A stretch of 64,000 nt of DNA from an uncultured Armatimonadetes bacterium (GCA_963716175.1 OY970296.1:1984001-2048000), one strand, 5' to 3'. Counted from the first letter of the stretch, positions 5,856 through 43,485 are shown. Notes: generated from the letters alone by a model not told the origin. Numbers and translations: made by a program.

Positions 5856-5925
5856 TGACGACACCGCCCACCCCCGACTCCGGCTACCCCCTCGGCTGGG
5901 AGTCACTGCTCGGGGTTCCGTCGCG
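5856..5925 (+). repeat. Cassette-boundary palindromic repeat R1
   Basis: CCCCCGACTCCGGCTACCCCCTCGGCTGGGAGTCACTGCTCGGGGTTCCGTCGCG. Confidence 0.9.
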
Positions 5926-6139
5926 TACCGTCGAGCGACGGCTCTTCTCGGACACGCGGGTCACCGCGTTTCGGTTGGCGGCGTGGTGTCAGGCCGGCTC
6001 CACAGGCGTCTGACAGGGACACAATGGCCATGCAGGCCGAGAAGCCCCGTTCTCGGCCTACTTAGGCCTGCACCACGTGGGGTTGGCAAGTACGCGCGGG
6101 TTCAAGTATCCCCTGCAGAACCAGATGCTGCGTTCACGC

Positions 6140-8329
6140 TCAGGAGACAGGCACGAAGTGGGTCCAGACCAGCTTGACCGCGATCCGGGCCTGCGTGGAG
6201 GCTGCGTTGGGGTCTCCCAGGATGAGGAAGATATCGCGCCCGTGCGCAACTCGCTGGCGGTAGGCGGCGTAGAGGTTGATCTTGCCGACCTGGGCATTCG
6301 GCGACGCGCCACTGAGCTCGCGGGGAAGCTGCTCGGCCTCGTAGTAGACCTGCGGCAGCCAGAAGTTAGAGTTCCCTCTCCGGTATACGGCCCGCGCGGT
6401 GATGCTCTTCTCGTCGGACAGATCGTAGGTCGCGGTCAACAGCGCCTGGACGCCGCGGAGATCTTCTGCTGGCTGCTTCGCCTCCAGCCGCACTTGCTCA
6501 AGCCGGACTTGCCAGGAAAAATCCTGCGTCGGCCGGTAGCCTTGTGATAGCTGCAGGAACCGGTATGGTCCACCCAATCGTGCCCCAAGCGTTCCGTCGA
6601 AAGAGCCCCGGGTGTAGAAGTCCTTGTTGTGCCATTCACGATCGAAGTTGAAGCTTCTCTCTGCGAACCCGGCCCGCTCCCCCGTGCCCAGACTCCAGTG
6701 CCACGAAGTGTCGTTTCTCCAATGCAGGTTGTACCCTCCGCTAACATCCCAGCGGGGGCCAGCAGGGTCATCAAAGACACTGCCGTCGACATCCCACCCC
6801 CGAAGTTCTACTGGCCCGGTGTCGGGGAGTCGGTGCATGTTCAGCGACAGGCCGCCACCTCTGATCCCGGTCTCCGGCACATAGCCTACCCCCACCTCAC
6901 GCCGAACTGGGCCCGACTCGGTCTCCTCGGTGACGGTCTGGAAGCTCCTACCAATCTCCTGGTACCATCCCCACCACCCAAGACCGTTCGGCCGGTCGCG
7001 CCCGGCGTCGATGGTCAGGGCGCGCCCGTCGCCACTGGGGCCCTCGGTGTTCCCCTGGAAAACGCTCGCGGCGAGGGAAGCGGACCCGTCGGGCTTTGGC
7101 CAGGTCCATTCTGTCCCGACGTGCATGGCCACGTTGTCTAGGCCCGCGGGCTCGCGATGGTTGACCAGGCCGACTCGCACCTTTCCGCGGTCACCTAGGT
7201 CGTATCCATAGGCCGCCACAAGGTCGTTGGTTCGGTCGGGCTCCAGTGCGTCCAGTAGGCCGACGCTGTGTCGGCCTAGTTTCCCGAAGGTCTTGGCCCC
7301 CAGGTTCACCAGGGCAATACGGCGGCTGTAGAAGATCATCGTGGGCGGGTAGTAGGAGCCAGCGGGCTCGCCCCACTCGGTCTTCTGGCCTCCGCCTTCC
7401 ATGAAGAAGGGCCGGTACTCGGGGAACTCCCGCTCAGTGTAGGTGAAGTCAATGCTCTCCACCACGTCTTCGATGTTGCGGAAGTCCGGCTTGTAGCTGA
7501 GCACCGAGACCAGACCGTTGGGCATCACGTACTTGGTGTCGAGTCCGCCCGAAACCGCCTTGTCCTCGCTGCTGCCGCCAAGGTCGGCCACAAGGTATGG
7601 CATCAGGATGAGTGGTGGGCTGATGGCGGGAGCCGCTATGCCCACCCAGTCTGCATCCCGAGTCAAGTCCAGCGTCTCGCCGCCCTGACCGAGGTCGGGC
7701 CAGCTGCTCCAATCTGACATCCGCGCCAGGTAACGCGCGAAGTGCACCCCGAACGTCTTCTGCCCAGTCGGGTAACGCAGGATGCCGAAGGGGATGGCCA
7801 TCTCCGCGGTCCAGCCATCGGGGACGATCCGTGCCGCGCCGGTCCAGTCTCCTCGCCACTCGTACTTCTCAGCGGACCCGCCAGGGATCTCCTCTCGCTG
7901 CGTGCCTCGAGGAGTTAGCTGGAACGAGTAGGTGGTTCGGTGGTCGTGGCCGACATCCAGCGAGAGCAGAACTGAATCATCCTTGCTGATGTCGCCATTG
8001 CGCTTCCGCTGGAGTGCGTGAATCTGTTGGGGATGGGAGTCATGGCAGTAGAAGGCCGCGTAGACGTTCCGGGAGTCGTAGCAGATCCAAGCCTCAGTTC
8101 GCTCGAATCCCCGCCCTCGTTTCGTCATACGTGAGAAGCCTTCGACGTGGGTGGCCTGCTGCCAGCAGGGGTCATCCAGAGCGCCGTCAATCACGGGCAT
8201 CCTGTCAATGGCTACGGCCTCCGACCGAGGTGGGCCTTCACCCTCGGCCCAGGCCCCGCTTGACATGAGCGCAGCCACCATCGCTGTCAGGAACGCGACG
8301 ATGCAGCGCAATGACCTCATGACCGGCAT
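6140..8329 (-). CDS. Secreted CBM9-like / DUF5916-type protein
   Basis: Signal peptide; PVIDGALDDPCWQQA, GWTAEMAIPF and YKPDFRNIE...EYRPFFMEG motifs; C-terminal barrel-like region. Confidence 0.75.
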   Translation of the reverse strand: MPVMRSLRCIVAFLTAMVAALMSSGAWAEGEGPPRSEAVAIDRMPVIDGALDDPCWQQATHVEGFSRMTKRGRGFERTEAWICYDSRNVYAAFYCHDSHPQQIHALQRKRNGDISKDDSVLLSLDVGHDHRTTYSFQLTPRGTQREEIPGGSAEKYEWRGDWTGAARIVPDGWTAEMAIPFGILRYPTGQKTFGVHFARYLARMSDWSSWPDLGQGGETLDLTRDADWVGIAAPAISPPLILMPYLVADLGGSSEDKAVSGGLDTKYVMPNGLVSVLSYKPDFRNIEDVVESIDFTYTEREFPEYRPFFMEGGGQKTEWGEPAGSYYPPTMIFYSRRIALVNLGAKTFGKLGRHSVGLLDALEPDRTNDLVAAYGYDLGDRGKVRVGLVNHREPAGLDNVAMHVGTEWTWPKPDGSASLAASVFQGNTEGPSGDGRALTIDAGRDRPNGLGWWGWYQEIGRSFQTVTEETESGPVRREVGVGYVPETGIRGGGLSLNMHRLPDTGPVELRGWDVDGSVFDDPAGPRWDVSGGYNLHWRNDTSWHWSLGTGERAGFAERSFNFDREWHNKDFYTRGSFDGTLGARLGGPYRFLQLSQGYRPTQDFSWQVRLEQVRLEAKQPAEDLRGVQALLTATYDLSDEKSITARAVYRRGNSNFWLPQVYYEAEQLPRELSGASPNAQVGKINLYAAYRQRVAHGRDIFLILGDPNAASTQARIAVKLVWTHFVPVS

Positions 8330-8481
8330 GGAGCATCCTCGCCCAGAAGGAGTGGAGTGCCAGCACCAGGCGAGTTGTAGGCGCGTTCCCCTCCATCCGC
8401 CCTCTCGCCCGCTAGTTTCTTCCTCTCGGGCGCATCTGTATCCTTTCGAAGCGCGACCCGACACACTGCCGTCGGAGGTCG

Positions 8482-8526
8482 CGGCTGCCCCCTCGGCTGG
8501 GAGTCAGTGTCTGGGGTTCCGTCGCG
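8482..8526 (+). repeat. Repeat R2 (left arm missing; tail to about 8660 is shared with R10 and partly with R6)
   Basis: CGGCTGCCCCCTCGGCTGGGAGTCAGTGTCTGGGGTTCCGTCGCG. Confidence 0.85.
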
Positions 8527-8763
8527 GATGAGGACAGCAGCCGCGCCACGGTGGCGATCACAGGCAGCCCCAGCCAGCCCAAGCGCCACCCGGCATCCTT
8601 CTCCGCCCTCCGCGCTCCCCAGAACAGGGGTGTCAGCGACTGGAGAGAATACCGCTACTGAGGCTGCAGCACTGCCTTGGGATGCAAATAAGTTGCTGGA
8701 CACCGCGGGATGCAGGACGCTCCCAGGCGCGGGCGGAGCTGAGGCAGGGGAGGACCGCCGCAG

Positions 8764-10572: not shown

Positions 10573-10597
10573 TGGTCGGAGAGTCGAAGAGGCGAGA

Positions 10598-10773: not shown

Positions 10774-10806
10774 TGTCAACCGCCCTTGAAGCCGGCCTGA
10801 GGGCAC
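10774..10806 (+). repeat. Orphan 5' head of the cassette repeat
   Basis: TGTCAACCGCCCTTGAAGCCGGCCTGAGGGCAC matches the heads of R5, R6, R12 and R14 but has no core. Confidence 0.8.
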
Positions 10807-10988
10807 TCGCAGGCTTGTGTGCCCGATCCTGTTCCTGCATCATCTGAAGCCAGGATTAGGTGACTTCGGGCGCCGCTTTCGCGTTGAGGAGTGGAACCGG
10901 CATGGAGGTCTTCCCTGCATCCGTCGGGCCGGTCTTCCTGTAGCGGCCGAAAGGACAGAGTGCGGCTCATCGCGGAGGACCCATGGAC

Positions 10989-11059
10989 TGACGGCCCCGA
11001 GCGGCCCCGACTCCGGCTACCGCTTCAGCTTGGAGTCACTGCTCGAGGTTCCGGCGCGT
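10989..11059 (+). repeat. Repeat R3
   Basis: GACGGCCCCGAGCGGCCCCGACTCCGGCTACCGCTTCAGCTTGGAGTCACTGCTCGAGGTTCCGGCGCG. Confidence 0.85.
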
Positions 11060-11444
11060 GTACGGCTGATCCTCGCCCGCACGCAAGCTCAGAGGCCGCT
11101 CAGGGGTGTCCCATCGCCATTTGAAACCGGCAACGATGTCCATGTGCCCCCTGCTTCCAAGCTTTCCGTGCCCAAGCCGACTTCTCACCGCTCGCCTGCC
11201 CTCCTGCCAGTGAGCGGGCCGGCCGCGCTTCGGGAAGGTCCCTGACGCCTGGGGCACAGGTCAGCCCCAGGCCCATGACGAAGGAGAGGCCCCGGTTCTG
11301 CTCGCGGCAGACCAGTGGACCGCCTGCCGAGGTCCTTGTGCTGCCTGTAGTTGGGCACGAAGCTCCTTCCCAAAGGCGCTCGGAAGGATGATGCCGTACG
11401 CCCACGGCAAGATCGTCAGCAGTCCGAAGTACGGAGGTGACCAC

Positions 11445-14793: not shown

Positions 14794-15561
14794 TCAGCTG
14801 TGTGGCATCACCTCCTGCGCCCCGAGTTTGTCCTTCAGCCGGTAGCTGTTGCCCTTGATGTTCACCACCGTGCTGTGGTGGAGCAGCCGGTCCAGGATGG
14901 CGGTGACGATCAGCGGGTCGTGGAAGAGCTCCGACCACTCCTCGAAGGCCTTGTTAGAGGTGATGACGGTGCTCATCTTCTCGTAGCGCATCGCCACGAA
15001 CTGGTAGAAGAGGTGGCATTCCTCCCGGTCGATCGGGGTATAGCCCACCTCGTCCACCACCACCAGACTCGAGGTATAGCAGCGGCGCCCCCGGCCCATT
15101 CGTCCTGTAGTTTGGTCCACCCGCAGCTTGGCGATGAGCTCCGCCATGGTGGTGAACTGGATGGTCTGGCCGGCCTGCGCCGCCTTCACCGCCAGCGCCA
15201 CCGCCAAGTGGGTTTTCCCGACCCCTGGTGGGCCAAGCAGGACGAGATTCTCCTTCCTGGCGAGGAAGGTCAGGTCAAGGGGGCTCAGGATCTGCTGCCG
15301 ATTGAGGCTGGGCTGGAAGGTGAAGTCGAACTCGTCCAGGGTCTTCAGGTAGGGCAGCCCCGCGCCTTTGAGGGCGTGCTCAATGCGGGTCTGCTCGCGG
15401 GCCGCCACCTCCTCCTCGAAGAGCGCATCCAGCAGTTGGGAGTAGCTCCAGGCCTGACCTTCCGCCGCCTTCAGCAGTTCCGGCAGACTCTCCCGCAGGC
15501 GCACCAGCCGCAGACGCGTCAGATTCTCTGTGAGGCGCTCCAGCAGCAACTGCTCAGGCAT
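14794..15561 (-). CDS. istB: IS21 helper ATPase IstB
   Basis: Walker A GPPGVGKTHLA, DEVGY, AILDRLLHH. Confidence 0.92.
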   Translation of the reverse strand: MPEQLLLERLTENLTRLRLVRLRESLPELLKAAEGQAWSYSQLLDALFEEEVAAREQTRIEHALKGAGLPYLKTLDEFDFTFQPSLNRQQILSPLDLTFLARKENLVLLGPPGVGKTHLAVALAVKAAQAGQTIQFTTMAELIAKLRVDQTTGRMGRGRRCYTSSLVVVDEVGYTPIDREECHLFYQFVAMRYEKMSTVITSNKAFEEWSELFHDPLIVTAILDRLLHHSTVVNIKGNSYRLKDKLGAQEVMPHS

Positions 15562-16430
15562 GCGCCACCTCCCCTCCGATCCGCCCGTACACTGACAGAG
15601 GCCGGCGCTGGACCTCGATCGCATACCGGCCCAGGTGCGGGCTGAGGGTGGCTTTCGCCTTGCCCTTGGGAGGCGAGGCGTACTTGCGGGCATTCATCTC
15701 CCGGTCCGCCAGCATCGCTTCCCGCAGCCCCGGCAGTGCCACCAGTCGACCTTTGGCAGCAGACTGCGCGTGCGTCGCCATCAGCCTGTCCCCATCGAAG
15801 ATGCGCAGCACTCCCTCCTGGAACCGGATCAGGATGCGCTTGCCCACCAGCGTGTGGGGTACCTGATAGCGACAGCCCTCGAAGCTCAGCGTGCAGTCCT
15901 TATAGACCTTGCGGTGGAGCCGCTGCGATACATCACAACGCACCAACGGGAGCGGCAACAGAAAGGCCCGTTCCGCCGCAAAGCGATCGCAGACCCGCTC
16001 CCCGGTGGTGCCGTGGACACGCTGGGCTTTCTCTTCCAGGAAGGCCCTCAGCTCCTGGCTGGCCGACCCAACATCCGTGAAGTGATAGCCCCGCCAGAAA
16101 CCTTCCCGCACGAAGTCCATGGGCCGCTCCACCTTGCCCTTCACCCAAGGCGAGTAGGCGGGCGCCACCCGGGGCACAAAGCCATAGTGGTCGGCGAGCG
16201 TCATCAGGCCCTGCGTGAACTCCGTCTTGCCCGCCAGTTTGCGTAGGAAGACGTTACGCATCCGGTCATAGAGCAGCTCCGCCGGCACCCCTCCGAAAAA
16301 GGCGAAGGCCCGCTGGTGTGCCTCCAGGAAGCTGACCAGGTCGCAGCGTGTCAGGTACTCCCCGTAAAGCTGCCGCGAGTAGCCCAGCACCATGCTGAAG
16401 AGGTAGTAGCTGCGTTCGCCCCCTTCCTCA

Positions 16431-17884
16431 GATTATGTCCCGCCCGTAGTGTAAGGTTGGGCGGTCCCTCTCGCGTATCTTAGGCCGCGACACGGCCCTC
16501 GTCAACTGAGATCTGCGACCGGTCGCTAAGCGACTGGCCTTCGTCCAGCACGGCCTTCAGCATCCAGAGGCCCTTGTGCCCCATGATCTTGCGGAAGCTG
16601 CGCTCGGTCTCCAGCGCGGCCGCCCCGGCCCAGCGCAAGGCCATCTCTCCCGAGCGCCAGCGGGTGACGCGGCCGGTGCGACCCTCCACCCCCGAGAGCG
16701 AGCTCTCGATGATGTTGGTGGTGGTCAGGCAGGTGCGCAGCATCGGCGACAGCCCCAGTCGGGCGATGGTGAAGGTCTCCTCCAAGCCCTCCCGCAGGCT
16801 GGCCGCGGCCTTGGGATGAGTTCGCTCCAGCCACTCGATCTGGGTGTGCAGCCGCGCCATCCCTTCCTTGGGCTCCAGCTTCCACGCCGCCCGCAGCGCC
16901 GCCGCCACCTGCCCCTGCATCTCTTTGGGCAGGTAGCCCAGCACGTTCCGGCGCTTGTGCGCCTGGCAGCGCTGCACCGGATGCTGCTTGCCGAAGACAT
17001 CATCAATCGCCTTGCGCAACGCCTTCGAGCCATCAATCACCAACAGCCGTCTGCGCTCCGGGCGCACCCCTCGCTCCACCAGCTCCTCCAGCAGTCCCTT
17101 CACTACCACCGCGTTCTCCGTGGCCCCCTCGGTGAGGCCCAGGACGTGTTTGCAGCCCGCTGCGTCCACTCCGATGGCACTCACCACCTGGTGGCCCCCG
17201 AAGTGCTTGCCGTCCAGGTAGATCACCAACAGGTCAAGGTCATCGAAGCGCCGCTCGCACAGCTCCCGCAGCGCCTCCGCACTCGCCTCTTGCAGCTGCC
17301 GGCTCACCGCCGAGCGCGATACCCCGCAGCGCTCCGCCAGCTCCGGCACCACCTCCTGGTAATGGCGCGTGCTCACCCCTCGCATCACAATCGACAGCAT
17401 CCGCTCCCGCAGCCTCTCATCGGACTGCATCGCGGCATAAGCCGGCACCGCCACCTCAGCCCCCTCCCCGCCGCCCTTCCGGCGCAACCGCGGCTTGCTC
17501 ACCCGCACCTTCTGGCCCCCCAGCGCGACTATCCCGCCTTGCTCGCCATGGCGCCGGATCACCCCGCCCGGCCGGCCCGGATGCGCCGGCCCCGCCACCT
17601 CTTCGGCTGAGATCAGCAGCACCGCCTCCAGCGCCGCCTTTCCCATCTCCCCCACTAGCTCTTCCACGGCGAGTTGCCCCGCCTCCAGCAGTTCCATCAT
17701 CGGCACCAGCGCCGCCCCCTCCCTCGCCAGAAACTGGCGCAGCGCGGCACTACCCTTGCGACCCACAACCTGATACTCTCTTCTCACGGCGGTTCTCTCC
17801 TTTTCAAGCTTTGGGTTACCCGATTCTATCAGAACCGGGCTGGAGAGAGCCGCCTCAACCTTCAACTATGAACGGGACACCATC
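16431..17884 (-). mobile_element. IS256-family insertion sequence
   Basis: Imperfect 26-bp inverted repeats GATTATGTCCCGCCCGTAGTGTAAGG / GATGGTGTCCCGTTCATAGTTGAAGG; 8-bp target duplication CTTCCTCA at 16423-16430 and 17885-17892. Confidence 0.9.
16480..17865 (-). CDS. IS256-family (Mutator-type) transposase; true start uncertain
   Basis: GVSTR, YLDG, IDGSKAL, QRCQAHKRRN and TTNIIES motifs. Confidence 0.9.
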   Translation of the reverse strand: MKVEAALSSPVLIESGNPKLEKERTAVRREYQVVGRKGSAALRQFLAREGAALVPMMELLEAGQLAVEELVGEMGKAALEAVLLISAEEVAGPAHPGRPGGVIRRHGEQGGIVALGGQKVRVSKPRLRRKGGGEGAEVAVPAYAAMQSDERLRERMLSIVMRGVSTRHYQEVVPELAERCGVSRSAVSRQLQEASAEALRELCERRFDDLDLLVIYLDGKHFGGHQVVSAIGVDAAGCKHVLGLTEGATENAVVVKGLLEELVERGVRPERRRLLVIDGSKALRKAIDDVFGKQHPVQRCQAHKRRNVLGYLPKEMQGQVAAALRAAWKLEPKEGMARLHTQIEWLERTHPKAAASLREGLEETFTIARLGLSPMLRTCLTTTNIIESSLSGVEGRTGRVTRWRSGEMALRWAGAAALETERSFRKIMGHKGLWMLKAVLDEGQSLSDRSQISVDEGRVAA

Positions 17885-18434: not shown

Positions 18435-18938
18435 CTGGCCATCGCCCGCGGCGACGGCCGCTATCCCAGAGTGCTGGCCGCGCTCCTCCGCACGGAACTC
18501 ATCGTGCTCGACGACTGGGGGGCGGCCGCGCTGGTCCCCGAGCAGTGCCGAGAACTGCTGGAGATCCTGGAGGACCGCTACCAGCGCCGCTCCACCCTGG
18601 TCGCCTCTCAACTGCCGATCGCCAACTGGCACGAGTACCTGGGCGATCCCACCCTCGCCGACGCCATCCTGGACCGCCTGGTCCACAATGCCCACACCAT
18701 CACGCTGAAAGGGGAATCCATGAGAAAACGTCACAAGCCTTTACCCGCCGGCCGTCTGGAGGGCTTGCAGGCCGACGGAAAAACAGCTACAACAGACTTG
18801 CCCGCCGGCCGGGTGGCGGGGACCAAGTGAACGACCCCGCGTCGTCGCTTCGCTCCGACCAGAATGGGTGATCACTTTCAATCGGAACGCGCGGTTACTT
18901 TGCTTCGGAACGCGTGATCACTTTCGCCGGAATGCGCA
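18435..18938 (+). mobile_element. istB: Truncated IS21 (3' istB and right end), related to the element at 49211-51868
   Basis: Near-identical to 51413-51868; ends CGGAATGCGCA. Confidence 0.9.
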
Positions 18939-19065
18939 GCCTCCCGGAGCGATTTGGCGAAGTGCTGGCAGTTGTGGAGCCGGATTCTCGCGTCAGATGC
19001 GAGCAGAGCCAGCTACCACAGGACTGAGGCCCGCCCGCAGGTGGTGGGCCGCCGGTCCCGGGTAG

Positions 19066-19099
19066 CCCCGACCCCGGCTGCCCCTTCGGCTGGGAGTTA
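19066..19099 (+). repeat. Repeat R4 (degenerate)
   Basis: CCCCGACCCCGGCTGCCCCTTCGGCTGGGAGTTA. Confidence 0.75.
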
Positions 19100-19323
19100 T
19101 CGCACAGGGACCCTTCGGGCAGGGAGGCGATCCTCGACTGGCGAAGAAAGCTTCAGATCCGTACCATGATCGTCTGCCGGGGAAGCTAGCGAAGGCTGAG
19201 GGCGAGTGCAAAGGTACAAGCGCAGGAACGCCGGAGGTGTAGCTGGCCCCAGCCCCCTTCTGTGCCGGAAGCGCTGACACTCTGCACGTTCTTTGGGGGC
19301 AAGGCCAGTCTCACCCACCACTG

Positions 19324-23016: not shown

Positions 23017-23104
23017 TGTCCACCGCTCGTGAAGCCGGCCTCAGGGCACCTCTCGACTCCGGCTGCCGCTCGTCTTGGAGTCACTGGACGGGGTTCTATC
23101 GCGC
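23017..23104 (+). repeat. Repeat R5 with head B
   Basis: TGTCCACCGCTCGTGAAGCCGGCCTCAGGGCACCTCTCGACTCCGGCTGCCGCTCGTCTTGGAGTCACTGGACGGGGTT. Confidence 0.85.
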
Positions 23105-23195
23105 AGGCAGGGAGGACACCACGGCAGGTCCGGGGCCGGCGCTCGCCGCGGTCACCCGTGCATACCGGACCTGGGATTGCCCCGCAAGCCCCCGA

Positions 23196-23882: not shown

Positions 23883-23970
23883 TGTCAACCGCCCGTGAAG
23901 CCGGCCTGAGGACACCCCCGACTCCGGTTGCCCCTCGGCTCGGAGTTGCTATCCGGGGGTTCGTCTCGTA
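23883..23970 (+). repeat. Repeat R6 with head B
   Basis: TGTCAACCGCCCGTGAAGCCGGCCTGAGGACACCCCCGACTCCGGTTGCCCCTCGGCTCGGAGTT. Confidence 0.88.
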
Positions 23971-24211
23971 TGTGTCCGGTATGGCAGGGCAGCCGCCCCA
24001 CGCTGGCGATCTTGGGCGGGCCCGCCCAGTTCGGGCCCCGACCAACTCCTAGCCCATCCCCAGTGCCTCCCAGACCAGGGATGTCCGCGAGGGCACAGAA
24101 TGGCACAAGAGGGGCTGTGCAGGGGGTCCGGGAGCCATATCGGCTTGCAGACATGATGATCTCGCCCTTCGCGGCGCTCACCATACCAACCACCTAGCGG
24201 GAGCCAACCGC

Positions 24212-25177: not shown

Positions 25178-25507
25178 CCCAACTACGCCCGGCTCGGCCT
25201 GACCTGTTTCGTCTGGCTGTGCACCCCAATAGCCCTATCCAAGCACTCCTGGGCGGTTCTCTTCCCGGCTGAGTCGGTGCTATCCTTGCCTCATGAGTAC
25301 CGTTTCGAGCTTCCTGTCTAAGGGATGTTCCGTCAAACGTCGCCCGCGAGGCGTCGGACGCCCGCCGTGACCAGCCGGTCGCGGAACATGCGAGAGGCGG
25401 CCAGACACAAGGTCCGCTGTATCGTGGCACCCCGACCGGAGGCGCAGTGATCAGAGTTGAAGGGCCTGCCAGCAGCACCCTAGTGCGGGCCGCCGAACAT
25501 GCGTCGG

Positions 25508-25578
25508 CGGCGGCCCCGAGCACCCCCGACTCCGGCTACCCCCTCGGCTTGGAGTCACTGTCCGAGGTCCGGTCGCGG
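25508..25578 (+). repeat. Repeat R7
   Basis: CGGCCCCGAGCACCCCCGACTCCGGCTACCCCCTCGGCTTGGAGTCACTGTCCGAGGT. Confidence 0.9.
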
Positions 25579-25657
25579 ACGGGAGAGCGCATCGCGCGGG
25601 TCCGGTACCGGCGATCACTCGGCCGCCCGGGCATGCCGGACCGACGGCGGCAGCCGC

Positions 25658-27643
25658 CTATCCGAACCAGACCTGGTAGCCCGCGACAAGATCGGGTACT
25701 GCGGCGCCCACCAAGCCCCAGACGACGCCCGCGGTGAACACGTGGCCCAAGGCGAAGCCGAGGAAGCCTGGAACGGCCGCCCGGTAGAGCTTCATCCCTC
25801 CGTACCGTAGGATCAGCACCTTGCACAGCCACACGACGAGGAACGGGAACCAGACCAAGTCACCATAGGCAGTAGCCACGGCAAAACCGAGAGGGTGGAA
25901 TGGGGACCATCCGAGGCGTTGCCGTAGCCAGATCAGCGCGCCGGTCGCGACCACGCCCCATCCGGTGGCAGCGATGCGGGCCGGATCGGGCGCGATAGGA
26001 GCCCGCATCGCAGCCATCACCTCTCCGAAGTCACCCTGCGCGAGGTCGCTGCCCCAGATTGCGCCGTCGCGCAGATGAACGGCGCCGTATCGGTAGTAGG
26101 GAACGAAGTGGAAGTAGTACGCCACACCCAGGCCAATGACGAGCGCTAACATGACCGCGACCGCCATGTGCGAGGGCTTCATGCGGGTCTGCTCCGCAGT
26201 CTTGAAGCTGTCCACCTGGTAGCCGATGAGGGCCGGGAAGTAGCCGCGGGACAGGAAAGCCAGCAGCGCAAGCATAGTGAGCGTCGCCGGGTGGCCCCCT
26301 TGCATGAACACTGCTGTCCCCAGGGTGTAGAGCAGGATCTTCTTCTGCATCCAGAAGGGGAAGGCCCAGACCAGGGGCATGCCCGCTTCCGCGCGGATGC
26401 GCGCACACACGAGTGCCACCAGGCCGAGGATGACCATGTAGGCGATGGCCACCCAGGCTGCCATCCCCGCCATACCGCAGAACAGCAGCACGAGCAAGGA
26501 GCTCACCACCAGGCCTACGAGCGCCCATCGGAGTGGGAACGGCGCGCCCGCGTCACTGGGGCTTCGGGCCCGGCTGAGCAGCTCAGCAAGAGCCTGCCTG
26601 ATGGTGCCGCGTGCCGACCACAGCAGCCCAAGCCCCAGGAGGAGGAACGCGCCAAGGCTCTGCTCTTGCGGGTATGGCACGTCGGCAGCCGCATAGCCAT
26701 AGGAGGCAATCAACAGGGCTTCGAGCTTGTAGACAAGGAAGAAGAACCAGATGGAGAAGCTGATCTCGGTGGAGACCAGGAACCCGAAGCCGATCAGAAC
26801 CGGGGTGAAGTAGATAGGGAGGGGGAGTACGGAACTCCAGGGCAAGCTCGGAGAGGCCGGTCCCACATAGCCATACCAGGCTAGGCCGGGTAGTGCCGGA
26901 TAAAGCGCGTGCAGGATATTGACGAGGTTGAAGAGGAAGGTCAGGCTGAACCCGACCCACATGACAGGATTGAGGAAGAATGGACGTCGGGTCGCACGTC
27001 CCATTGTCGGACTGGTCATCTCCAGGGCGAGCTCGACGATGGGGAAGCTGAGGCGTTCCTCCTGGACCCACCGCCTTCGCACCAGTGCCACCATGCACAG
27101 CATGGCGGTCCAGAATGCCGCAAGGAAGCCGCTCCAGACCAGAAGAGGAACCAGCCACGCGCCCCAGGGGACTGGGCCTGACCCCATATACAGACCCTCT
27201 ACGATCGCGGGGCTGTGGGGCGCCATCCAGTTGGGTATCCACCGCTGGAGTGAAACCAGATCGTTCTCCGGCCTGGCGAAGTAGAAGGGGTACGTCACCG
27301 AAGCCAGCCAGTACCGGATCACTCCAACCCCGGCCATCGAGATGGCAATCCCCACGAAGGTGTAGATCGCGAGGATCTCCACCCGGCTCAGTTGCGCCCC
27401 CCGCCGGATCGCGCGCAGGAGTGGGTTGATGGCCAGCAGGAGCATCAGCGCGCCCAGGGCGGGGATGGCGGGCACTGCCTCCGATATCTGGGTCGAGATC
27501 ACGACGATCTCGGCCTGCCGGACCCAGAGCCCGCAGGTGATAGTGAGCAGGACCGCGATTAGGAGGGCTCGCCAGGTCAGCGCCTCCGAAGCCTCCTTCG
27601 CAGTCTGCGTGGCGCGTGTTCGTCCCGGACCAGTCGCGGTCAT
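25658..27643 (-). CDS. Polytopic membrane protein, DUF6785/DUF6784-like
   Basis: Many transmembrane segments; RRWVQEERLSFPI, RIRAEAG, FHPLGF and LRYGGMKLYR motifs. Confidence 0.75.
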   Translation of the reverse strand: MTATGPGRTRATQTAKEASEALTWRALLIAVLLTITCGLWVRQAEIVVISTQISEAVPAIPALGALMLLLAINPLLRAIRRGAQLSRVEILAIYTFVGIAISMAGVGVIRYWLASVTYPFYFARPENDLVSLQRWIPNWMAPHSPAIVEGLYMGSGPVPWGAWLVPLLVWSGFLAAFWTAMLCMVALVRRRWVQEERLSFPIVELALEMTSPTMGRATRRPFFLNPVMWVGFSLTFLFNLVNILHALYPALPGLAWYGYVGPASPSLPWSSVLPLPIYFTPVLIGFGFLVSTEISFSIWFFFLVYKLEALLIASYGYAAADVPYPQEQSLGAFLLLGLGLLWSARGTIRQALAELLSRARSPSDAGAPFPLRWALVGLVVSSLLVLLFCGMAGMAAWVAIAYMVILGLVALVCARIRAEAGMPLVWAFPFWMQKKILLYTLGTAVFMQGGHPATLTMLALLAFLSRGYFPALIGYQVDSFKTAEQTRMKPSHMAVAVMLALVIGLGVAYYFHFVPYYRYGAVHLRDGAIWGSDLAQGDFGEVMAAMRAPIAPDPARIAATGWGVVATGALIWLRQRLGWSPFHPLGFAVATAYGDLVWFPFLVVWLCKVLILRYGGMKLYRAAVPGFLGFALGHVFTAGVVWGLVGAAVPDLVAGYQVWFG

Positions 27644-27883
27644 GGCCTCTCTGTGCTCGCCCAGCGATCTGTCCTGCCGGTGGTCTGGCGATATGCGGCA
27701 CGGATGTCCAACAGGATGAGACGGCGTGCGATTGTCACATCGGCACGGAACGCCTGTCAAGGCGTGGATGGGCGCAGTCCCAGTCGGCCGACGCCGCTGC
27801 CTTCCGGGCAGTCGGGACCGGACTCTCAGCAGGGCACGTAGGGTCCGCCACAGTGGAGCATCCGGGCCCGCCCCCGCGCGTCG

Positions 27884-27935
27884 ACCCCTCGACTCCGGCT
27901 ACCCCCTAGCTGAGAGTCACCGTCAGGGGCCTCGT
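27884..27935 (+). repeat. Repeat R8
   Basis: ACCCCTCGACTCCGGCTACCCCCTAGCTGAGAGTCACCGTCAGGGG. Confidence 0.85.
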
Positions 27936-28147
27936 GGCCTGTAGGATGGCGATCTTCCCCATCCAAGAGCGGCAGACTGCCTCAGGAGGTATAGGGGGCA
28001 GCGGGCCGAAGAGGTCCCTCTGTGGTGGGTGAGCAGCTGGGCGCACCAGGAGGACGATGACCTTCACCTTGGGCGCGGCGCATCCTCTGCGGAGTTGCAC
28101 GCTTACTCAGGAGCTTGTGACGCCCAAGGCACAGGGACGGGCTAGCG

Positions 28148-30805: not shown

Positions 30806-31019
30806 TTGTGCACCACAGACGCGCTATCTGGGCGTTCCGGGCGAATGCGAGCAGCTGGTGCCGCGGTCAGGCCGCTAAGTGTCAGCCGCCTCCTGATGTA
30901 GACCACCGCCGCCGAATCCGAATTCCTGCGCGCAGGGACCAGTGACCGCTCTTCCGGGCCTGATCCGGTGTTTCCTCAGGCCTACCGCAGGGCGTCCGGC
31001 CGCCCCGCCGAACCATCCT

Positions 31020-31092
31020 TGCCGACGGCCCCGGCCACTCCCGACTCCGGCTACCCCTTCGGCTGGGAGTCAGTGTCCAGGATGCGTCGCGG
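31020..31092 (+). repeat. Repeat R9
   Basis: TGCCGACGGCCCCGGCCACTCCCGACTCCGGCTACCCCTTCGGCTGGGAGTCAGTGTCCAGGATGCGTCGCG. Confidence 0.9.
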
Positions 31093-31224
31093 ATGGCCTG
31101 CCGGCACGGAGCGCGCCCAACGGCTGAGGTTGGGTACTAGCGCTGGCGACGAGCGGGATGAGCCACCACCAGAGCAGAAGACTGTCTGCAGCGCCGCGGC
31201 CGGGCCAGGGACCCGGGCACGCAC

Positions 31225-32760: not shown

Positions 32761-33258
32761 GCGCGGGCCAGGTCTGCTTGCGGATGGCAAGTAGCGACGG
32801 GGCGGCCCGCGGCACCGAGCAGGCTGGGCAGCTTGTGGAGCAGATCGTTCAGCATCCGCAGTAGGACGGTCTGGAAGGGCCGCTTCAGGTCACGCATGAT
32901 CGCGCTCCCGCACGTCGGTCATCAAGGGGCCGGCAGCGATTCCGTGTGGATGTCAAGCGGGCTTGGGACACCGCCTGAGCAGCTCGGACCGGCCCTGCCC
33001 CTGATGACCGGCGACGCGTCGTCGCGTGTAACCGCGACGATGGGACATGGATGAGCCGTCGGAACATCTGTGGGGTGAGAAGCGGGTGCGAAGGGCGCGG
33101 TGAGACGGGCCGGCCTACCAGGTGACACCGGCCACGGTCAGCAGAGCAGTCAGGCCGCGAGCCGATACGCGGTGATCTGAGTATCTGCGAAGAGGCGGCG
33201 CTCAATCGTGGCTGGCAGCGTCCTGGCGGACTTCCCCGGCCTGCCCCACTCTTCTTCC

Positions 33259-33333
33259 TGTCCGACGCCCCCGGCCACCCCCGACTCCGGCTACCCCTTT
33301 GGCTTGGAGTCGGGGGCCGGGGTTCCGTCGCGT
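33259..33333 (+). repeat. Repeat R10 (tail to about 33478)
   Basis: TGTCCGACGCCCCCGGCCACCCCCGACTCCGGCTACCCCTTTGGCTTGGAGTCGGGGGCCGGGGTTCCGTCGCG. Confidence 0.9.
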
Positions 33334-33539
33334 ATGCGTCCGGTATGGCAGGAGCAGTCGCGCCACGGCGGCGATCACCGGCAGCCCCACCCGGTCGAAT
33401 CCCCGCTCGGCACCTTTCTCCATCCCCGGTGGCCTTCCAGCACAGGGGTGTCCTCGAGTACAGAGAATACCGCCACTGGGACCATAGGAGCGTCTTGGGA
33501 GGCAGACGAGCTTTCGGACCGCGCGGGCGGAGGAGCGAG

Positions 33540-33821: not shown

Positions 33822-33847
33822 CGTCGCGGTGCAGGAGGTGCAGCGGG

Positions 33848-34924: not shown

Positions 34925-34970
34925 GCCGGGGTATGCACTCCCGCCCAATCGTCGGCTGACCAGCCTCGCT

Positions 34971-35022
34971 CCCCGCCACCCCCGACTCCGGCTACCCCTC
35001 GGCTGGGAGTGAGTGACCGGGC
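34971..35022 (+). repeat. Repeat R11
   Basis: CCCCGCCACCCCCGACTCCGGCTACCCCTCGGCTGGGAGTGAGTGACCGGG. Confidence 0.9.
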
Positions 35023-35152
35023 CGAAACGCGCTATGCGACGATACGTCCCAGGAAGACGAGACTGAGACCTGGGACCATCCCCCTATCGGTCCTGACGGC
35101 CATTGCGGTATGCTGATCAGGCATGCAGACAGTGCGCAAGGAGGTAGAACCG

Positions 35153-36022: not shown

Positions 36023-36077
36023 AGACGGCATCGCCGGGGCGTCGTCTGTTGCTCCCCGGCGTAGGTAACGGGGTGCC

Positions 36078-40405: not shown

Positions 40406-40406
40406 G

Positions 40407-41624
40407 ATGAGGGCGAGACTGGGGCTATGCCTGCTATTGGCAGTGGCGGCCACGGGCGCGGCGCACAGCGCTGAGCTGTCGCTGGCGCAGGCAGAGAAAG
40501 GCCTCAGGGTGGCGGAGGGTTTGCCTTCGAGGGAGAACTGGCAAGGCAGCTCGCTGCGCTACCGAGTCGAGCCGCTGGAGGCTGCCTTCCGCAGCGCCAC
40601 TGCTCACGATCCGGGGCGGGCGTACCAGGGATTGGCGAGATGCCAGATGCTGCTCGGCCGGTATCGTCAAGCCGCTCGCTGGTTCCGTCGAGCCGTGAAG
40701 GCGGCGCCTGGCAATCGCGCGGCCGCGGCAGACTGGCGCCGAGCCCAGCAGTTCGCCACCATCGCCAGGGCCGCGGGCCGGCTGCTTCCCGAGGGCACCG
40801 TCGTGCTTCAGGTCGCGCCGCTGGGAGGTGATGCGCGGGGACCATGGGCGGTGCTCTCCGCAGCCATCGGGCCAGCGATGAGCTTCACCAACGACAACTT
40901 CTACGAGGGGGCGCGTCTGAGACTGCTGCGCGAGACCACGCGGGGACCGAGACTGGTCTGGCGTTCGGACGTGCTCAGTGTTCGGATCGGGCCGGGGCCT
41001 GGATGGACGAATGGCTTCCGGATGTACGTGCTGGAGGAGAGGCCTCTCAAGGTGCTCGTTGAGGAGGTGTTCTACGGGGCAGACTGGTCCCCGTCGCATG
41101 TCGACGCGTTTGCCTGGCAGGGGGGAAGGCTGATCGCTGTGCCAGTGCGTGAAGGCGAGAGCGACCACATCGGGGCGCCGCCGGCTGGTAACACCTTCCC
41201 ATCCATCCAGGCGTCTGCGTTCGATAGTGAGATACCTCCCTGGATCCTGGACCTGGGGCATGATGGACAGCACGAAGTGGTGACGCTGAACAGGATCGGA
41301 TCCGGCCTTGCGATGGCTGCGATGGTGTTCTGGCCCTCCATCTATACCTACGAGCGCGGCGCCTACATGCTCGCCGACAGACGTTTCCCGAAAGCGTACC
41401 TGGAGACCGGCGATGAGATCCGGCAGAGGTCGGAGGAGCATCCGGGCAACTACGAGCTGCTGAAGGATCTGGGGATCTACTACGAGATACAGGGGGATGC
41501 CGAAGCGGCTCTGGATGCGTACCGGCGCGCAGAGGCTGCCCTGACATCACGAGCCGCGGACTCGCCGGCTGCCCAGTCCGAACTCGCTGGCATCCGGGCC
41601 CGTATCCGGCGCCTGGGCGGGTGA
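40407..41624 (+). CDS. Secreted TPR-containing hypothetical protein
   Basis: Signal peptide; TPR-like segments at both ends. Confidence 0.65.
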   Translation: MRARLGLCLLLAVAATGAAHSAELSLAQAEKGLRVAEGLPSRENWQGSSLRYRVEPLEAAFRSATAHDPGRAYQGLARCQMLLGRYRQAARWFRRAVKAAPGNRAAAADWRRAQQFATIARAAGRLLPEGTVVLQVAPLGGDARGPWAVLSAAIGPAMSFTNDNFYEGARLRLLRETTRGPRLVWRSDVLSVRIGPGPGWTNGFRMYVLEERPLKVLVEEVFYGADWSPSHVDAFAWQGGRLIAVPVREGESDHIGAPPAGNTFPSIQASAFDSEIPPWILDLGHDGQHEVVTLNRIGSGLAMAAMVFWPSIYTYERGAYMLADRRFPKAYLETGDEIRQRSEEHPGNYELLKDLGIYYEIQGDAEAALDAYRRAEAALTSRAADSPAAQSELAGIRARIRRLGG

Positions 41625-41745
41625 GCAGGACCCCGTCGGTCCGGCTGAGTCGCTGCCAGCGCCGAGCCGACTAGCTGGAACCCGCGTGTTGTGCCGGATG
41701 AGGAAATGCCGGTGGTCTAGGGCCGCCTTCTGACGCAGTTGTCCT

Positions 41746-41831
41746 TGCCGACCGCCCGTGAAGCCGCCCCCGGTCACCCCCGACTCCGGCTACCCCCTCG
41801 GCTGGAGTCACTGCCCTTGGGCTCTCTCGCG
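41746..41831 (+). repeat. Repeat R12
   Basis: TGCCGACCGCCCGTGAAGCCGCCCCCGGTCACCCCCGACTCCGGCTACCCCCTCGGCTGGAGTCACTG. Confidence 0.9.
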
Positions 41832-42231
41832 ACAGGGAACGACGCGACAGTGAGCTACCAGGGCCGTCGATCTGTCTGTCAGTCGGTGGCAGCGACGTGG
41901 AGACTGCCAGTCGTCTGGACTGCTCTGGCGGAGGGCTCACTGGTACAGCGCGTTCAGCCGGTCCGGCGGCATATCGCACAAGGTCGCGCCGACAGAGCCG
42001 ATACGCGACGGAGCCGCGCACGCTCATCGCCACGCGGCCCCGGAGACGAGGCTTGCACTGCTCAGCACGATTCTCTAGGATTCACCCTGACCGAGTTGCC
42101 ACGCAAGATACTGCGGACCCACCTGAGGCGCAAGAGGCAAGTCCGGGTCCTTGAGTATCCCCGATCACACATTGTGAGGGCAGACTGACACGGACACGCC
42201 GGACTTGGCGGCCCAGACCTGATGGCAGGAG

Positions 42232-42283
42232 GCCGACGGCCCCGGGCAACCCCGACTCCGGCTCCCCCCTCGGCTTGGAGTTG
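42232..42283 (+). repeat. Repeat R13
   Basis: GCCGACGGCCCCGGGCAACCCCGACTCCGGCTCCCCCCTCGGCTTGGAGTTG. Confidence 0.88.
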
Positions 42284-42462
42284 TGCGGACCGGATACAGA
42301 TGCAAGAGCAGCAGGGAAGCCCTGGGCTCAGCAGAAGCGAAGCCCCCGTCTGGGCACGGGTGACCGCGGCGTGTGGTCTGCCTTGGCGCGGGATTCCAGC
42401 CCGGCATCAGGAGGGGCTTCCTCCCAGCAATCAGTGCTCAGGAGAATGAGGAGGGTGTACAG

Positions 42463-42954
42463 ATGAAAGGGCTACGTTCGGTCGCGTTGGTGCTTGGGCT
42501 GGCCGCCGCTTTGGCGGCCCCGGCCCTGTCCGGTCAGCGGGGTGGTGGCGGCCGTCGGGGCGGAGGTGGTGGACAGGGCGGTAGCATGAAGGCCCTGCTC
42601 GACCGCCTTGGGTTCACCGAGCAGGAGCTGGCCGCGGTGCAGAAGAGCATGGAGGCCAAGTCCAAGGCTCATCAGACACTCGAGGACGAACTCGGTAAGT
42701 TGCGCGAGGTCGCTGGCAATGACAAGTCCACCGACCAGCAGCTGCGTCGGGCCATCGACAGCTACACCGAGGCCCTGGCGCGATACCGGGAGACAGTGCG
42801 GACCGAGGATCGCTCCCTCTCAGGCCGGCTCTCAGTAAGGAGCCGGGCGCGCTGCCTGGCAGCCGGGGCCCTTGACAACGGACTTGGCATGGGTGGAGGA
42901 GGGCGCGGCGGTGGGGGCGGAAGGCGTGGAGGTGGGGGCGGACGGCGGCCCTAG
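42463..42954 (+). CDS. Small secreted helical protein with Gly/Arg-rich ends
   Basis: GAGGAGG RBS, signal peptide, helical core. Confidence 0.7.
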   Translation: MKGLRSVALVLGLAAALAAPALSGQRGGGGRRGGGGGQGGSMKALLDRLGFTEQELAAVQKSMEAKSKAHQTLEDELGKLREVAGNDKSTDQQLRRAIDSYTEALARYRETVRTEDRSLSGRLSVRSRARCLAAGALDNGLGMGGGGRGGGGGRRGGGGGRRP

Positions 42955-43024
42955 CCCGCTCCTCCAAGAGCCAGCCTGAAGGCGACTGCCGAGCCGACGG
43001 GGTGAACGACTGGAGAGCCGTGGC

Positions 43025-43095
43025 AGCCGGCCTGAGGGCACCCCCGACTCCGGTTATCCCCTTGGTTTGGGGTCAGTGTAGGTGGTTTCGTCGCG
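43025..43095 (+). repeat. Repeat R14 (last copy; tail to about 43190)
   Basis: AGCCGGCCTGAGGGCACCCCCGACTCCGGTTATCCCCTTGGTTTGGGGTCAGTG...TTTCGTCGCG. Confidence 0.85.
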
Positions 43096-43152
43096 GAGGC
43101 GGTGGCGTAGCAGTAGCGGGCGCGGTCTGGTACCGAAGCTGCCGCGGGGTAG

Positions 43153-43485
43153 GTGCCCGGTCATACCGGACCGATGGCGGTAGCCGTCCTTGCGCCGGAG
43201 CCAGATGAGTTTCTGGACACCACGCGCTTCTCGGTACGCGGCATTGCGCTGTTGGTGAATCGGTATCTGCGGGCGGCCGGCATCACCGATCGCTCCGGCC
43301 CCCACCTGCTGCGCCACACCTTCGCCACCCACGCCCTGCGCGCCCGGCCCAATCTCCGGGCGGTGCAGGAACTGCTGGGCCACGCCTGGGTGACCACCAC
43401 CCAGCGCTACACCCATCTGGAGGTCGAGGATCTACAGGCTCAGGTCGCTGATCTGCCGGCGAACCAGATCCACAGCGCCTCCTAG
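43153..43485 (+). pseudogene. C-terminal fragment of a XerC/XerD-like tyrosine recombinase
   Basis: [12 protein letters not shown]...[10 protein letters not shown]...TTQRYTH (H-x-x-R, H and Y catalytic residues); N-terminal domain and first Arg are absent. Confidence 0.88.

Follow-up and report, generated by a model that had tools for sequence, protein, structure and literature searches.

Co-oriented hairpin repeats border recurring accessory-gene blocks in an uncultured Armatimonadetes bacterium and may be structured recombination sites

Background

A 64,000-nt stretch of DNA from an uncultured Armatimonadetes bacterium (hereafter the window) contains a series of palindromic repeats, all on one strand, between genes of unrelated function. 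The locus raises the question of whether such repeats are sites at which gene blocks are exchanged, as the initial annotation had proposed in describing an integron-like cassette array with a non-attC site and possibly a Xer-like recombinase, or whether the repeats spread, or serve the neighbouring genes, in some other way.

Results

Fourteen hairpins of one orientation in the window

A covariance model was built from repeat families D8 and D14, which between them account for all 14 window copies. Scanning the window with this model returned exactly 14 copies, each intergenic and on the + strand, agreeing to a few bases with the positions first assigned; the earlier statement that 1-5.8 kb, 43.2-64 kb and the − strand are free of copies also held. 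The typed consensus, with ≤3 mismatches allowed, matched seven copies, all on the + strand, versus 0 in 100 shuffles. The copies are located at 5848..5930 (R1, 89.1 bits), 8448..8531 (R2, 59.1 bits; inspection of the sequence showed a degenerate 5′ arm), 10981..11063 (R3, 81.6 bits), 19042..19124 (R4, 68.5 bits), 23025..23108 (R5), 23891..23973 (R6), 25500..25582 (R7, 85.7 bits), 27858..27944 (R8, 53.6 bits), 31015..31096 (R9, 83.0 bits), 33255..33337 (R10), 34955..35037 (R11), 41754..41836 (R12), 42226..42303 (R13, in which the 3′ part is replaced by IS481-family end-like sequence) and 43017..43100 (R14, 74.1 bits, the final copy of the window array).

The repeat unit is an 83-nt imperfect palindrome, longer than the core first described, with consensus ends GACGGCCCCGG and CCGGGGTTCCGTC. 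Inside two outer stems (GACGG/CCGTC and CCCCGG/CCGGGG) lies an internal loop, then the inner stem GACTCC(GGCT)/(GGCT)GGAGTC, which is capped by an asymmetric loop, ACCCCCTC, that is itself conserved. Conservation is highest in the middle 29 nt and the loop, and the bulged bases are on one arm. Stem positions were paired in 84.4% of alignment cells versus 34-53% in slid controls, and 44 cells with double changes were seen versus 22.3 in shuffles, none of which (of 500) reached that number; both results count for a structured recombination site. Alignments of the copies showed no T-run 3′ of the hairpin on either strand. No known RNA family matched the repeats, which supports the initial annotation: Rfam 15 gave 0 matches at gathering score in the 64-kb window, and around R10 there was a single match at chance level (E = 0.73). 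As a separate observation, one IS family specifically targets the hairpins.

Genes between the hairpins

Gene calls and Pfam searches bore out the cargo that had been named for the intervals, which hold 0-4 genes of either strand: a weak CBM9 match, GHL10, two beta-helix proteins, GNAT, CN hydrolase, DUF6785/DUF6784, BNR/sortilin, and an M1 peptidase with TPR proteins. The genes at 6140-8320, 23196-23750/23915 and 25658-27760 lie on the − strand, each with + hairpins on both sides, so the orientation of the hairpins does not follow that of the genes. The R3-R4 interval also contains three transposase-related genes of the − strand that were missing from the earlier gene list, namely an IS21-family IstB gene (14794-15561; Pfam IstB_IS21, 2.1e-78), part of an IS21-family transposase (15554-16393; Mu-transpos_C_2, 2e-15) and a Mutator-family transposase gene (16480-17865; Transposase_mut, 6.2e-30). 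The M1 peptidase was present in 1 of the 16 genomes searched, and the DUF6785 copy has a 90% identical counterpart in another genome, G005, but in an unrelated neighbourhood; both findings count for an accessory content of the blocks.

Arrays across the genome and in other assemblies

The arrays extend far beyond the window. The genome (G000) contains 100 hairpin copies, 0 of them within predicted genes, in approximately 10 arrays that occupy approximately 9% of its length. Copies scattered genome-wide in both orientations had been named as the pattern of an ordinary REP or MITE; both orientations do occur (71 + and 29 −), but they are segregated by array rather than scattered. Orientation switches at 8 of 99 adjacencies, versus a shuffle mean of 41.2 (0 of 100,000 shuffles as low), 65 of the 99 spacings are <4 kb, and there are no inverted adjacent doublets among the 100 copies. 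Hairpin orientation was independent of transcription: relative to the hairpin, the upstream and downstream genes are same/same at 43 copies, opposite/same at 25, same/opposite at 21 and opposite/opposite at 11, giving a co-oriented downstream gene at 68 copies, an opposite one at 32, and an opposite upstream gene at 36. Mean identity between hairpins is 70%, and is equal within and between arrays (0.702 for each), so neither local duplication nor gene conversion explains the arrays. The hairpin homology is short for RecA-type exchange.

Three separate genome assemblies contain the family, as do 80 contigs that derive from many metagenomes. In G005, 20 of the 21 copies on five contigs have the orientation of their contig, and the third assembly, G011, has 24 + and 3 − copies. 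Among metagenome loci with at least two hairpins, 39 of 41 were uniform (adjacent pairs: 61 same and 2 opposite, of 63).

Recurrence of blocks and ends of homology

Sequence blocks bounded by hairpins have counterparts of 92-100% identity in other arrays and strains, next to different neighbours. Four of these, X, Y, Z and U, have 92-98% identical copies in different arrays, and occur in the combinations X-Y, Y-Z and U-X. Block U (41795..42267, +), which has R12 as its 5′ border in the alignments, contains no long ORF and matches G000 1060667-1061141, in a minus-oriented array, along its whole length at 92% identity (469 nt of 473/475 aligned). Block X (42267..43058, +) carries a Spy/CpxP-like gene at 42373-42954, with a Pfam Metal_resist match below cut-off, and is also found at G000 1949181-1950035 (98%) and 2258962-2259817 (97.5%) with differing neighbours. 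Strain-level contigs of 91-97% identity (L140, L151, L176 and L143) showed blocks ending at or near hairpins, and gene order for the genes common to G011 and G000 differs between the two, with hairpins at the joints.

Of 10 pairs with one-sided homology, 4-5 lose identity at the 5′ stem base, 3-4 at the 3′ arm or stem base and 2 within the loop. One example is the pair 1914562/2007066, in which the 2 kb upstream of R5 matches G000 1912.5-1914.6 kb at 98% identity up to a point within the loop. The proposed cassette shuffling thus stands in that blocks recur with new neighbours and homology ends at hairpins; it does not stand as to a fixed crossover, since the ends are scattered over approximately 55 nt with no one crossover point, and this spread counts against the reading of the hairpin as a recombination site. 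The same is true of R11, which lies within a 3.9-kb segmental duplication (partner G000 1978.8-1982.7 kb) that continues straight through the hairpin. No circular or deleted form of a block was observed in the genomes used, all of which are metagenome assemblies, in which repeats invite misjoins.

Modules 3′ of the hairpins

A 3′ module common to at least one other copy was found at 61 of the 100 hairpins, 52 of which fall in six groups of at least three (class a, 23; class b, 15; class d, 5; and three groups of 3). In the window, R1 is followed by a class-b module (~5924-6023, cluster member d1989889p), and class-a modules follow R2 (~8525-8709, member d1992490p), R6 (~23967-24151) and R10 (~33331-33515). 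The class-a module is conserved at all codon positions and has promoter-like features: a conserved extended −10 (TGGTATTCT), a Shine-Dalgarno sequence and ATG directed towards the hairpin, and, ahead of the next gene, the palindrome GCCAGATGAGTTTCTGGAC. This palindrome, which has 5-bp arms and a 6-bp spacer, marks the distal end of hairpin-linked 3′ modules and is present in the window at 43200..43218 (+). There are 32 copies in the genome, versus 1 for the reversed control; 20 of them follow a same-strand hairpin at a distance of 142-286 nt on its 3′ side, the next gene downstream is on the same strand in 25, and in 26 the ATG within the palindrome opens no long ORF. By their sequence, the recurrent modules look like promoter or operator DNA, suiting a regulatory role, and the fusion of more than half of the hairpins to such modules counts against recombination sites.

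A Xer-like recombinase near the arrays

A multi-copy Xer-like tyrosine recombinase gene, paired with a small divergent RHH gene, is found near the arrays at a distance of 7-54 kb. Copies located within 60 kb of a hairpin run opposite to the hairpins in 15 cases and in the same direction in 2 (5/2 in G000, 6/0 in G011 and 4/0 in metagenome contigs). Some recombinase genes are broken at residues 187-207, and their fragments directly adjoin hairpin elements in two distinct arrangements; in the window, a C-terminal fragment (residues 207-300; 43195..43470, +; 92% identity) is joined approximately 10 nt past GCCAGATGAGTTTCTGGAC. One joint has microhomology at 9 of 10 bases.

The suggestion of a Xer-like recombinase was therefore borne out as to a multi-copy, array-associated family, but its members lie at some distance and the family is also present in a repeat-free genome (G018; four copies, approximately 70% identity), which counts against recombination-site hairpins. 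Single copies with an in-frame stop were found in G008 and G012. The DNA between recombinase and arrays shows no homology from one locus to another and encodes, among others, a type III restriction-modification system and helicases; the recombinase may therefore be an ordinary island integrase.

Comparison with known systems

The attC sites of integrons end in R″ (RYYYAAC) and R′ (GTTRRRY) with a variable middle, and IntI carries a specific extra domain. Neither end motif was found at the hairpin ends, and, in contrast to attC, conservation is strong in the central 29 nt and the loop. A search with the integron integrase model TIGR02249 (cut-off 265 bits) gave 28 matches, none above the cut-off, the best at 90 bits and in the C-terminal part only; the array-linked recombinase scored 63.6 bits. 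The blocks carry 0-4 genes, which lie on either strand and seem to have promoters of their own, and homology ends at both stem bases and in the loop, unlike the integron cassette with one mostly promoterless ORF, one site and a fixed crossover; approximately 100 sites in approximately 10 places, with the recombinase outside the arrays, also differ from integrons. Attribution to attC-type integrons was therefore rejected. A classical integron, or a CALIN (an attC cluster that lacks an integrase) with divergent attC sites, is very improbable for the same reasons, despite the co-oriented, folded palindromes on one strand with bulges on one arm. As in integrons, blocks recur across arrays and the opposite strand carries a tyrosine recombinase gene. 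PMC4889954 describes integrons and CALIN by co-oriented folded imperfect palindromes on one strand between unrelated accessory genes, and clusters CALIN sites by at least two attC sites on the same strand <4 kb apart; the array spacings and rare orientation switches agree with this.

The hairpin resembles REP, BIME and REPIN elements in being a short intergenic palindrome with approximately 100 copies and mosaic flanking modules, and in being a specific target of one IS family. REPs are found in either orientation and often form inverted doublets, whereas the hairpins lack both inverted doublets and the GTAG tag and are strictly co-oriented locally. A RAYT-type REP was rejected, as the five Y1_Tnp genes of the genome are flanked by GTAGGGCGGGCA-type palindromes and none is near a hairpin.

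Short sites that flank gene modules and serve Xer-family recombinases are found in the pdif modules of Acinetobacter plasmids and in Xer1-driven vpma switching of Mycoplasma agalactiae; these are 28-bp duplex dif-like sites, alternating or inverted, and a dif-type site has 11-bp arms and a 6-bp spacer. The arrays are similar in having many short sites around gene modules and Xer-family recombinases, but each of their sites is a hairpin of 83 nt, and the orientation is direct. The host dif-like site, GGTCCGATAATAGTTCTTATGTTACAT, has no sequence in common with the hairpin, excluding a Xer/dif-type module site, and GCCAGATGAGTTTCTGGAC, with its 5-6-5 core, is yet not dif-like. Neisseria dRS3/RS mosaic elements and minimal mobile elements are exchanged by transformation and homologous recombination in conserved flanks. 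They share with the hairpins the mosaic intergenic repeats that border variable blocks and act as hot spots of recombination or insertion; we know of no array-wide co-orientation of dRS3/RS elements such as the hairpins have.

Discussion

Folded structure, arrays, co-orientation, reshuffled blocks and homology ends are observed here, and the arrays are integron-like in behaviour, not integrons by membership. From the sequence data we tentatively favour the reading that the hairpins are structured recombination sites bounding movable accessory-gene blocks, with a candidate enzyme, although this falls somewhat short of being probable. A rather doubtful alternative is a polar, REP/BIME-like mosaic, in which a non-autonomous hairpin spreads via single-stranded DNA at replication forks, with its orientation set by the direction of replication and its rearrangements arising incidentally when forks stall or the template is switched at the GC-rich stem base. 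A replication-linked orientation bias is described for IS200-type elements in PMC3971601. In G000 (GC-skew minimum ~1.15 Mb, dnaA 1.343 Mb, a single dif-like site at 3.594 Mb) orientation flips across the likely origin and 91 of 100 copies obey the replichore rule, but in G011 (dnaA 2.648 Mb, dif-like site 0.091 Mb) only 15 of 27 do, and an 11-copy + group lies on the wrong replichore. Taken array by array, the rule fits 13 of 20. Intergenic, palindromic copies with alternative flanking modules, scattered homology ends about the stem base and the microhomology joint all suit such spread. Against it are the absence of inverted doublets, the different flanks of the RAYT-like genes, the clustering in a small part of the genome, and folding energies with no clear strand preference (RNA parameters favour the written strand in 56 of 100 copies, DNA parameters in 30 of 100).

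It is unlikely that the hairpin is a gene-boundary expression module, which insulates or terminates transcription while 3′ modules supply promoter and operator, and in which arrays are co-oriented as repeated hairpin-module-gene units. The shared modules, the promoter-like class a, the GCCAGATGAGTTTCTGGAC copies and the predominance of co-oriented downstream genes point that way, but genes of opposite orientation are common on either side of the hairpins, co-orientation persists where gene strands alternate (window R1-R8), the hairpin has no T-run, the ATG in the palindrome mostly opens no long ORF, and such a role accounts for neither block reshuffling nor hairpin-located homology ends. That repeat-driven misjoins created apparent arrays and reshuffled blocks is scarcely conceivable: while all genomes and contigs are metagenome-derived, and Logan contigs over the window are short and broken at repeats, the family, its clustering and its co-orientation were seen in separate assemblies and contigs, contig L189 is 100% identical to G000 through two hairpins, and misjoins would randomise orientation, not unify it.

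If the hairpins are recombination sites, a block would exit or enter an array when the DNA is broken and rejoined at the hairpin, in most cases at the CCCGGG-containing stem base and at times within the loop. A block with one site, inserted into a resident site, would leave two direct copies, which would account for the clustering as well as for the strict co-orientation seen locally. We infer that these events are enzyme-driven and directional; the most likely enzyme would be the Xer-like tyrosine recombinase with its RHH partner, almost always encoded on the strand opposite to the arrays. That blocks hold variable numbers of genes on either strand, with their own upstream regions, counts against recombination-site hairpins.

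It is possible, if doubtful, that the arrays represent a second, independently evolved gene-capture system, in which a dedicated Xer-like recombinase and RHH protein would act on folded or cruciform non-attC sites cut at the stem base, and in which arrays in Armatimonadota would hold hundreds of kb of accessory genes exchanged between genera. Swappable blocks bordered by hairpins in uncultured Armatimonadota may indicate an undescribed route of accessory-gene shuffling.

Co-oriented hairpin repeats in the window and across genomes

The initial annotation described 14 co-oriented repeats on the plus strand (R1-R14), separated by unrelated cargo genes. Repeat finding recovered 14 of 14 hairpins (families D8 and D14), and a covariance model built from the window repeats returned exactly 14 in the window, all on the plus strand, between 5848 and 43100; the originally proposed consensus gave seven matches at up to three mismatches, all on the plus strand (0 in 100 shuffles). 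Pfam bore out that the intervening genes are unrelated, and three minus-strand genes each have plus-strand hairpins on both sides, so that hairpin strand does not track gene strand. Rfam gave no match in the window at the gathering score, and an E-value scan around R10 gave a chance match only. The first observation is confirmed and greatly extended by the genome-wide data below. Elsewhere in the window, protein-coding tandem repeats with a period of ~174 nt occupy 600-4600 (ORFs 921-2561 and 3179-4768), which we take to resemble a TolB/PD40-like beta-propeller repeat protein, and two direct duplications that are not hairpins were found (18435-18942 and 51413-51872; 5561-5669 and 49041-49149; 81-92% identity for both pairs).

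An HMM search of the source genome (a single contig of 4.56 Mb, in which the window spans 1984001-2048000) identified 100 hairpin copies, 71 plus and 29 minus, of which none lies inside a gene predicted by a codon-usage gene caller. The copies form ~10 arrays at 0.72-2.82 Mb, plus a single copy at 2.9 kb, and 65 of the 99 spacings are below 4 kb. Orientation switches at eight of 99 adjacencies relative to a shuffle mean of 41.2 (0 of 100,000 shuffles were as low), and there are no inverted doublets among the hairpins. Flanking genes are same/same relative to the hairpin in 43 cases, opposite/same in 25, same/opposite in 21 and opposite/opposite in 11; hairpin orientation is therefore not set by transcription. 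The five RAYT-like Y1 (HUH) genes of this genome (C1:961975-962520, 1199809-1200342, 3132006-3132578, 3625714-3626256 and 4050696-4051292) are flanked by a different, GTAG-type palindrome (GTAGGGCGGGCA), which constitutes a second, classical REP family, and identity of the hairpin as a RAYT-linked REP was ruled out on this basis.

The core pattern is present in three of 41 related genomes (the source genome, G005 and G011), with no control matches, and the covariance/profile model found 69 copies in G005 and 27 in G011. On five G005 contigs, 20 of 21 copies have the orientation shared by their contig, and G011 has 24 plus and three minus copies. An exact-core scan of metagenome contigs yielded 143 hairpins at 80 loci; 39 of the 41 loci with at least two hairpins are uniform, and adjacent pairs are in the same orientation in 61 cases versus opposite in two. 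Both mixed loci, L145 (3906-4139) and L168 (467-699), have hairpins ~230 nt apart that face each other; they probably represent repeated sampling of a single locus, and the facing pair may lie at an inversion joint. The G005, G011 and metagenome counts thus establish local co-orientation as a robust feature of the hairpin family.

Orientation in the source genome flips across the likely origin. The skew minimum lies at ~1.15 Mb and dnaA at 1.343 Mb, and the only dif-like site, at 3.594 Mb (C1:3593679-3593705, GGTCCGATAATAGTTCTTATGTTACAT), coincides with the maximum of cumulative GC skew; 91 of 100 copies conform to a replichore rule. The rule appears not to be general. In G011, dnaA is at 2.648 Mb and the conserved dif-like site at 0.091 Mb (C1:91175-91201, a three-mismatch version of GGTCCGATAATAGTTCTTATGTTACAT, again one per genome), and by these landmarks the rule fails: only 15 of 27 copies fit, and an 11-copy plus-strand group lies on the 'wrong' side. 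Counted by array, 13 of 20 fit the rule. GC skew in G011, from 47 sampled stretches of 14-20 kb, is too noisy to judge the rule by.

Hairpin structure and linked 3′ modules

The hairpin unit is ~83 nt long and, from its 5′ end, comprises an outer stem P1 (GACGG/CCGTC), a stem P2 bearing a TT bulge (CCCCGG/CCGGGG), an internal loop and an inner stem P3 (GACTCC/GGAGTC), which may extend into a P4 (GGCT/GGCT) that contains G.T pairs and one bulged base; the hairpin loop (ACCCCCTC) is conserved and asymmetric. Across 91 copies (89 distinct), 84.4% of stem cells pair, compared with 34-53% for a slid partner strand. Each of the 11 outer-stem pairs has changes in both of its positions; double-change cells number 44, against 22.3 for shuffled data (none of 500 shuffles reached 44). 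G.T pairs outnumber A.C pairs in the stems (125 vs 74); despite this excess no folding strand is named, because folding energies show no consistent strand preference among the copies.

In the source genome, the 3′ flank of 61 of the 100 hairpins recurs beside one or more other copies, and six groups of at least three hold 52 hairpins (23 in class a, 15 in class b, 5 in class d and 3 in each of three further groups). The class a module is ~185 nt long, and its opposite strand carries TGGTATTCT as well as a Shine-Dalgarno sequence plus ATG; a small protein gene was ruled out by 10- and 29-nt indels, a stop, and conservation at all codon positions. The module ends in the palindrome GCCAGATGAGTTTCTGGAC (5-bp arms, 6-bp spacer), which has 32 copies in the genome, one at window 43200-43218, versus one for the control. 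Twenty copies follow a same-strand hairpin on its 3′ side at a distance of 142-286 nt, and 12 are away from any hairpin, mostly upstream of a same-strand gene. In 25 of 32 cases the next gene downstream shares the strand of the palindrome, and the ATG within the palindrome was ruled out as the start of that gene in 26 of 32. The palindrome might serve as an operator or as the core site of a recombinase.

Blocks between hairpins recur with different neighbours

Inter-hairpin segments were set in hairpin orientation and compared all against all. Block X (R13-R14, with a Spy-like gene) occurs in three places at 95.7-98.4% identity, block U (R12-R13) in two at 92%, and blocks Y and Z in two each at 94-97%. 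Their combinations differ, being U-X in the window, X-Y at 2.259 Mb and Y-Z at 2.057 Mb. Among ten pairs related on one flank only, near-identity ends in the 5′ stem base in four to five, in the 3′ arm or stem base in three to four, and in the loop in two; CCCGGG is present in both stem bases. Two observations run counter to this pattern: the ends of homology are scattered over ~55 nt, and a 3.9-kb duplication passes straight through R11. Hairpins are ~70% identical, equally within and between arrays (0.702 vs 0.702; 986 of 2,000 label shuffles reach the observed difference). The arrays therefore did not arise by local copying or by homogenisation through conversion, and hairpins this dissimilar offer little homology for RecA-type exchange. 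Blocks on strain-level contigs L140, L151 and L176 are 92-97% identical to the source genome and end within ~20-75 nt of a hairpin centre. In G011, genes A and B-C-D of the 2104-2109 kb region of the source genome are reordered, with hairpins at the joints. Contigs from four sequencing runs over the window are short, with joints only between repeats and sides of at most 38 letters.

The genes within the arrays are accessory. The M1 peptidase was found in one of 16 genomes searched, the DUF6785 copy is 90% identical in G005 and at most 36% identical to other family members, and the DUF6785 and GHL10 genes have unrelated neighbours in G005 and G011. The DUF6785/DUF6784 family (window copy 25658-27760) is hugely expanded in the lineage, with 47 matches in the source genome and 38 in G005.

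A 1.29-kb IS481-family element encoding a 383-aa DDE/rve-type transposase has four copies that are 99.9-100% identical (C1:1725521-1726812, 1904479-1905770, 1934793-1936084 and 1973971-1975262). All four are inserted at one hairpin-loop position in one orientation, with a 5-bp duplication (CTACC or CTCCC), and at one of these sites the hairpin is uninterrupted in metagenome contig L143. IS110-family copies were rejected as hairpin-targeting elements because their flanks are not hairpins.

A candidate Xer-like recombinase

The Xer-like recombinase suggested in the initial annotation has a candidate of 302 residues, whose scores do not reach the XerC or XerD cut-offs and whose alignment to the integron-integrase model is confined to the C-terminus. 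The source genome has two intact copies (808917-809822, plus strand; 2242368-2243312, minus strand), one degenerate copy and at least five fragments, one of them directly after R14 (window 43195-43470); G011 has eight recombinase loci. Copies or fragments within 60 kb of hairpins are anti-oriented in 15 cases and co-oriented in two, with L135 and L194, which represent a single locus, entered once. The intact genes are situated upstream of the arrays, at a distance of 7-16 kb in five loci. A conserved platform linking recombinase and array was ruled out, as the intervening DNA shows no homology among five loci; at one locus this stretch codes for a type III restriction-modification system and helicases. 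The promoter region of the recombinase gene is conserved, and several loci also have a small RHH gene in divergent orientation, such as the 64-aa RHH-like gene at 2243556-2243750 (plus strand; L034:3556-3750), which has a weak NikA-like match; the pairing also occurs in several G011 loci and at two loci of other MAGs (L055 and L059). Fragments broken at residues 187-207 adjoin hairpin elements in two different ways. An attI-like site formed by GACTCC-like direct repeats upstream of the gene was ruled out, being found in only two of nine loci. G018 has four family copies (~70% identity) without the hairpin repeat, and G008 and G012 have single copies with an in-frame stop, which argues against a dedicated role.

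Discussion

Among systems that use folded DNA sites to store genes as cassettes and shuffle them, integrons are, to our knowledge, the only one that is well understood, and their occurrence is largely restricted to a few phyla. The hairpin family resembles such a system in three ways: its copies are strictly co-oriented locally, they cluster in accessory islands, and the blocks between them recur beside new neighbours. This part of the integron-like array originally proposed stands. The integron label itself fails on membership: the hairpin is unrelated to attC and there is no IntI. A divergent classical integron is accordingly very improbable, since none of 28 TIGR02249 matches in the source genome is near the cut-off and attC-type motifs are absent from the hairpin ends. 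Integron-like behaviour is, tentatively, the best single account of the co-orientation, clustering and reshuffled blocks, though we hold it with less than even confidence.

A polar REP-like element is a less likely explanation of the hairpins. Somewhat less likely again is a regulatory one, in which the hairpin belongs to an expression module at gene boundaries, as the shared 3′ modules, the Shine-Dalgarno sequence plus ATG of class a and the palindrome GCCAGATGAGTTTCTGGAC would suggest. An assembly artefact is the least probable of all. A search of literature listings found no description of such arrays.

If the arrays are enzyme-driven, they would represent a new way of capturing genes in a phylum about which little is known, and would supply a structured recombination site of a new kind, together with a candidate recombinase amenable to bench tests. 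If no enzyme is involved, the hairpin family would still be an unusual polar repeat that marks the places where these genomes rearrange.
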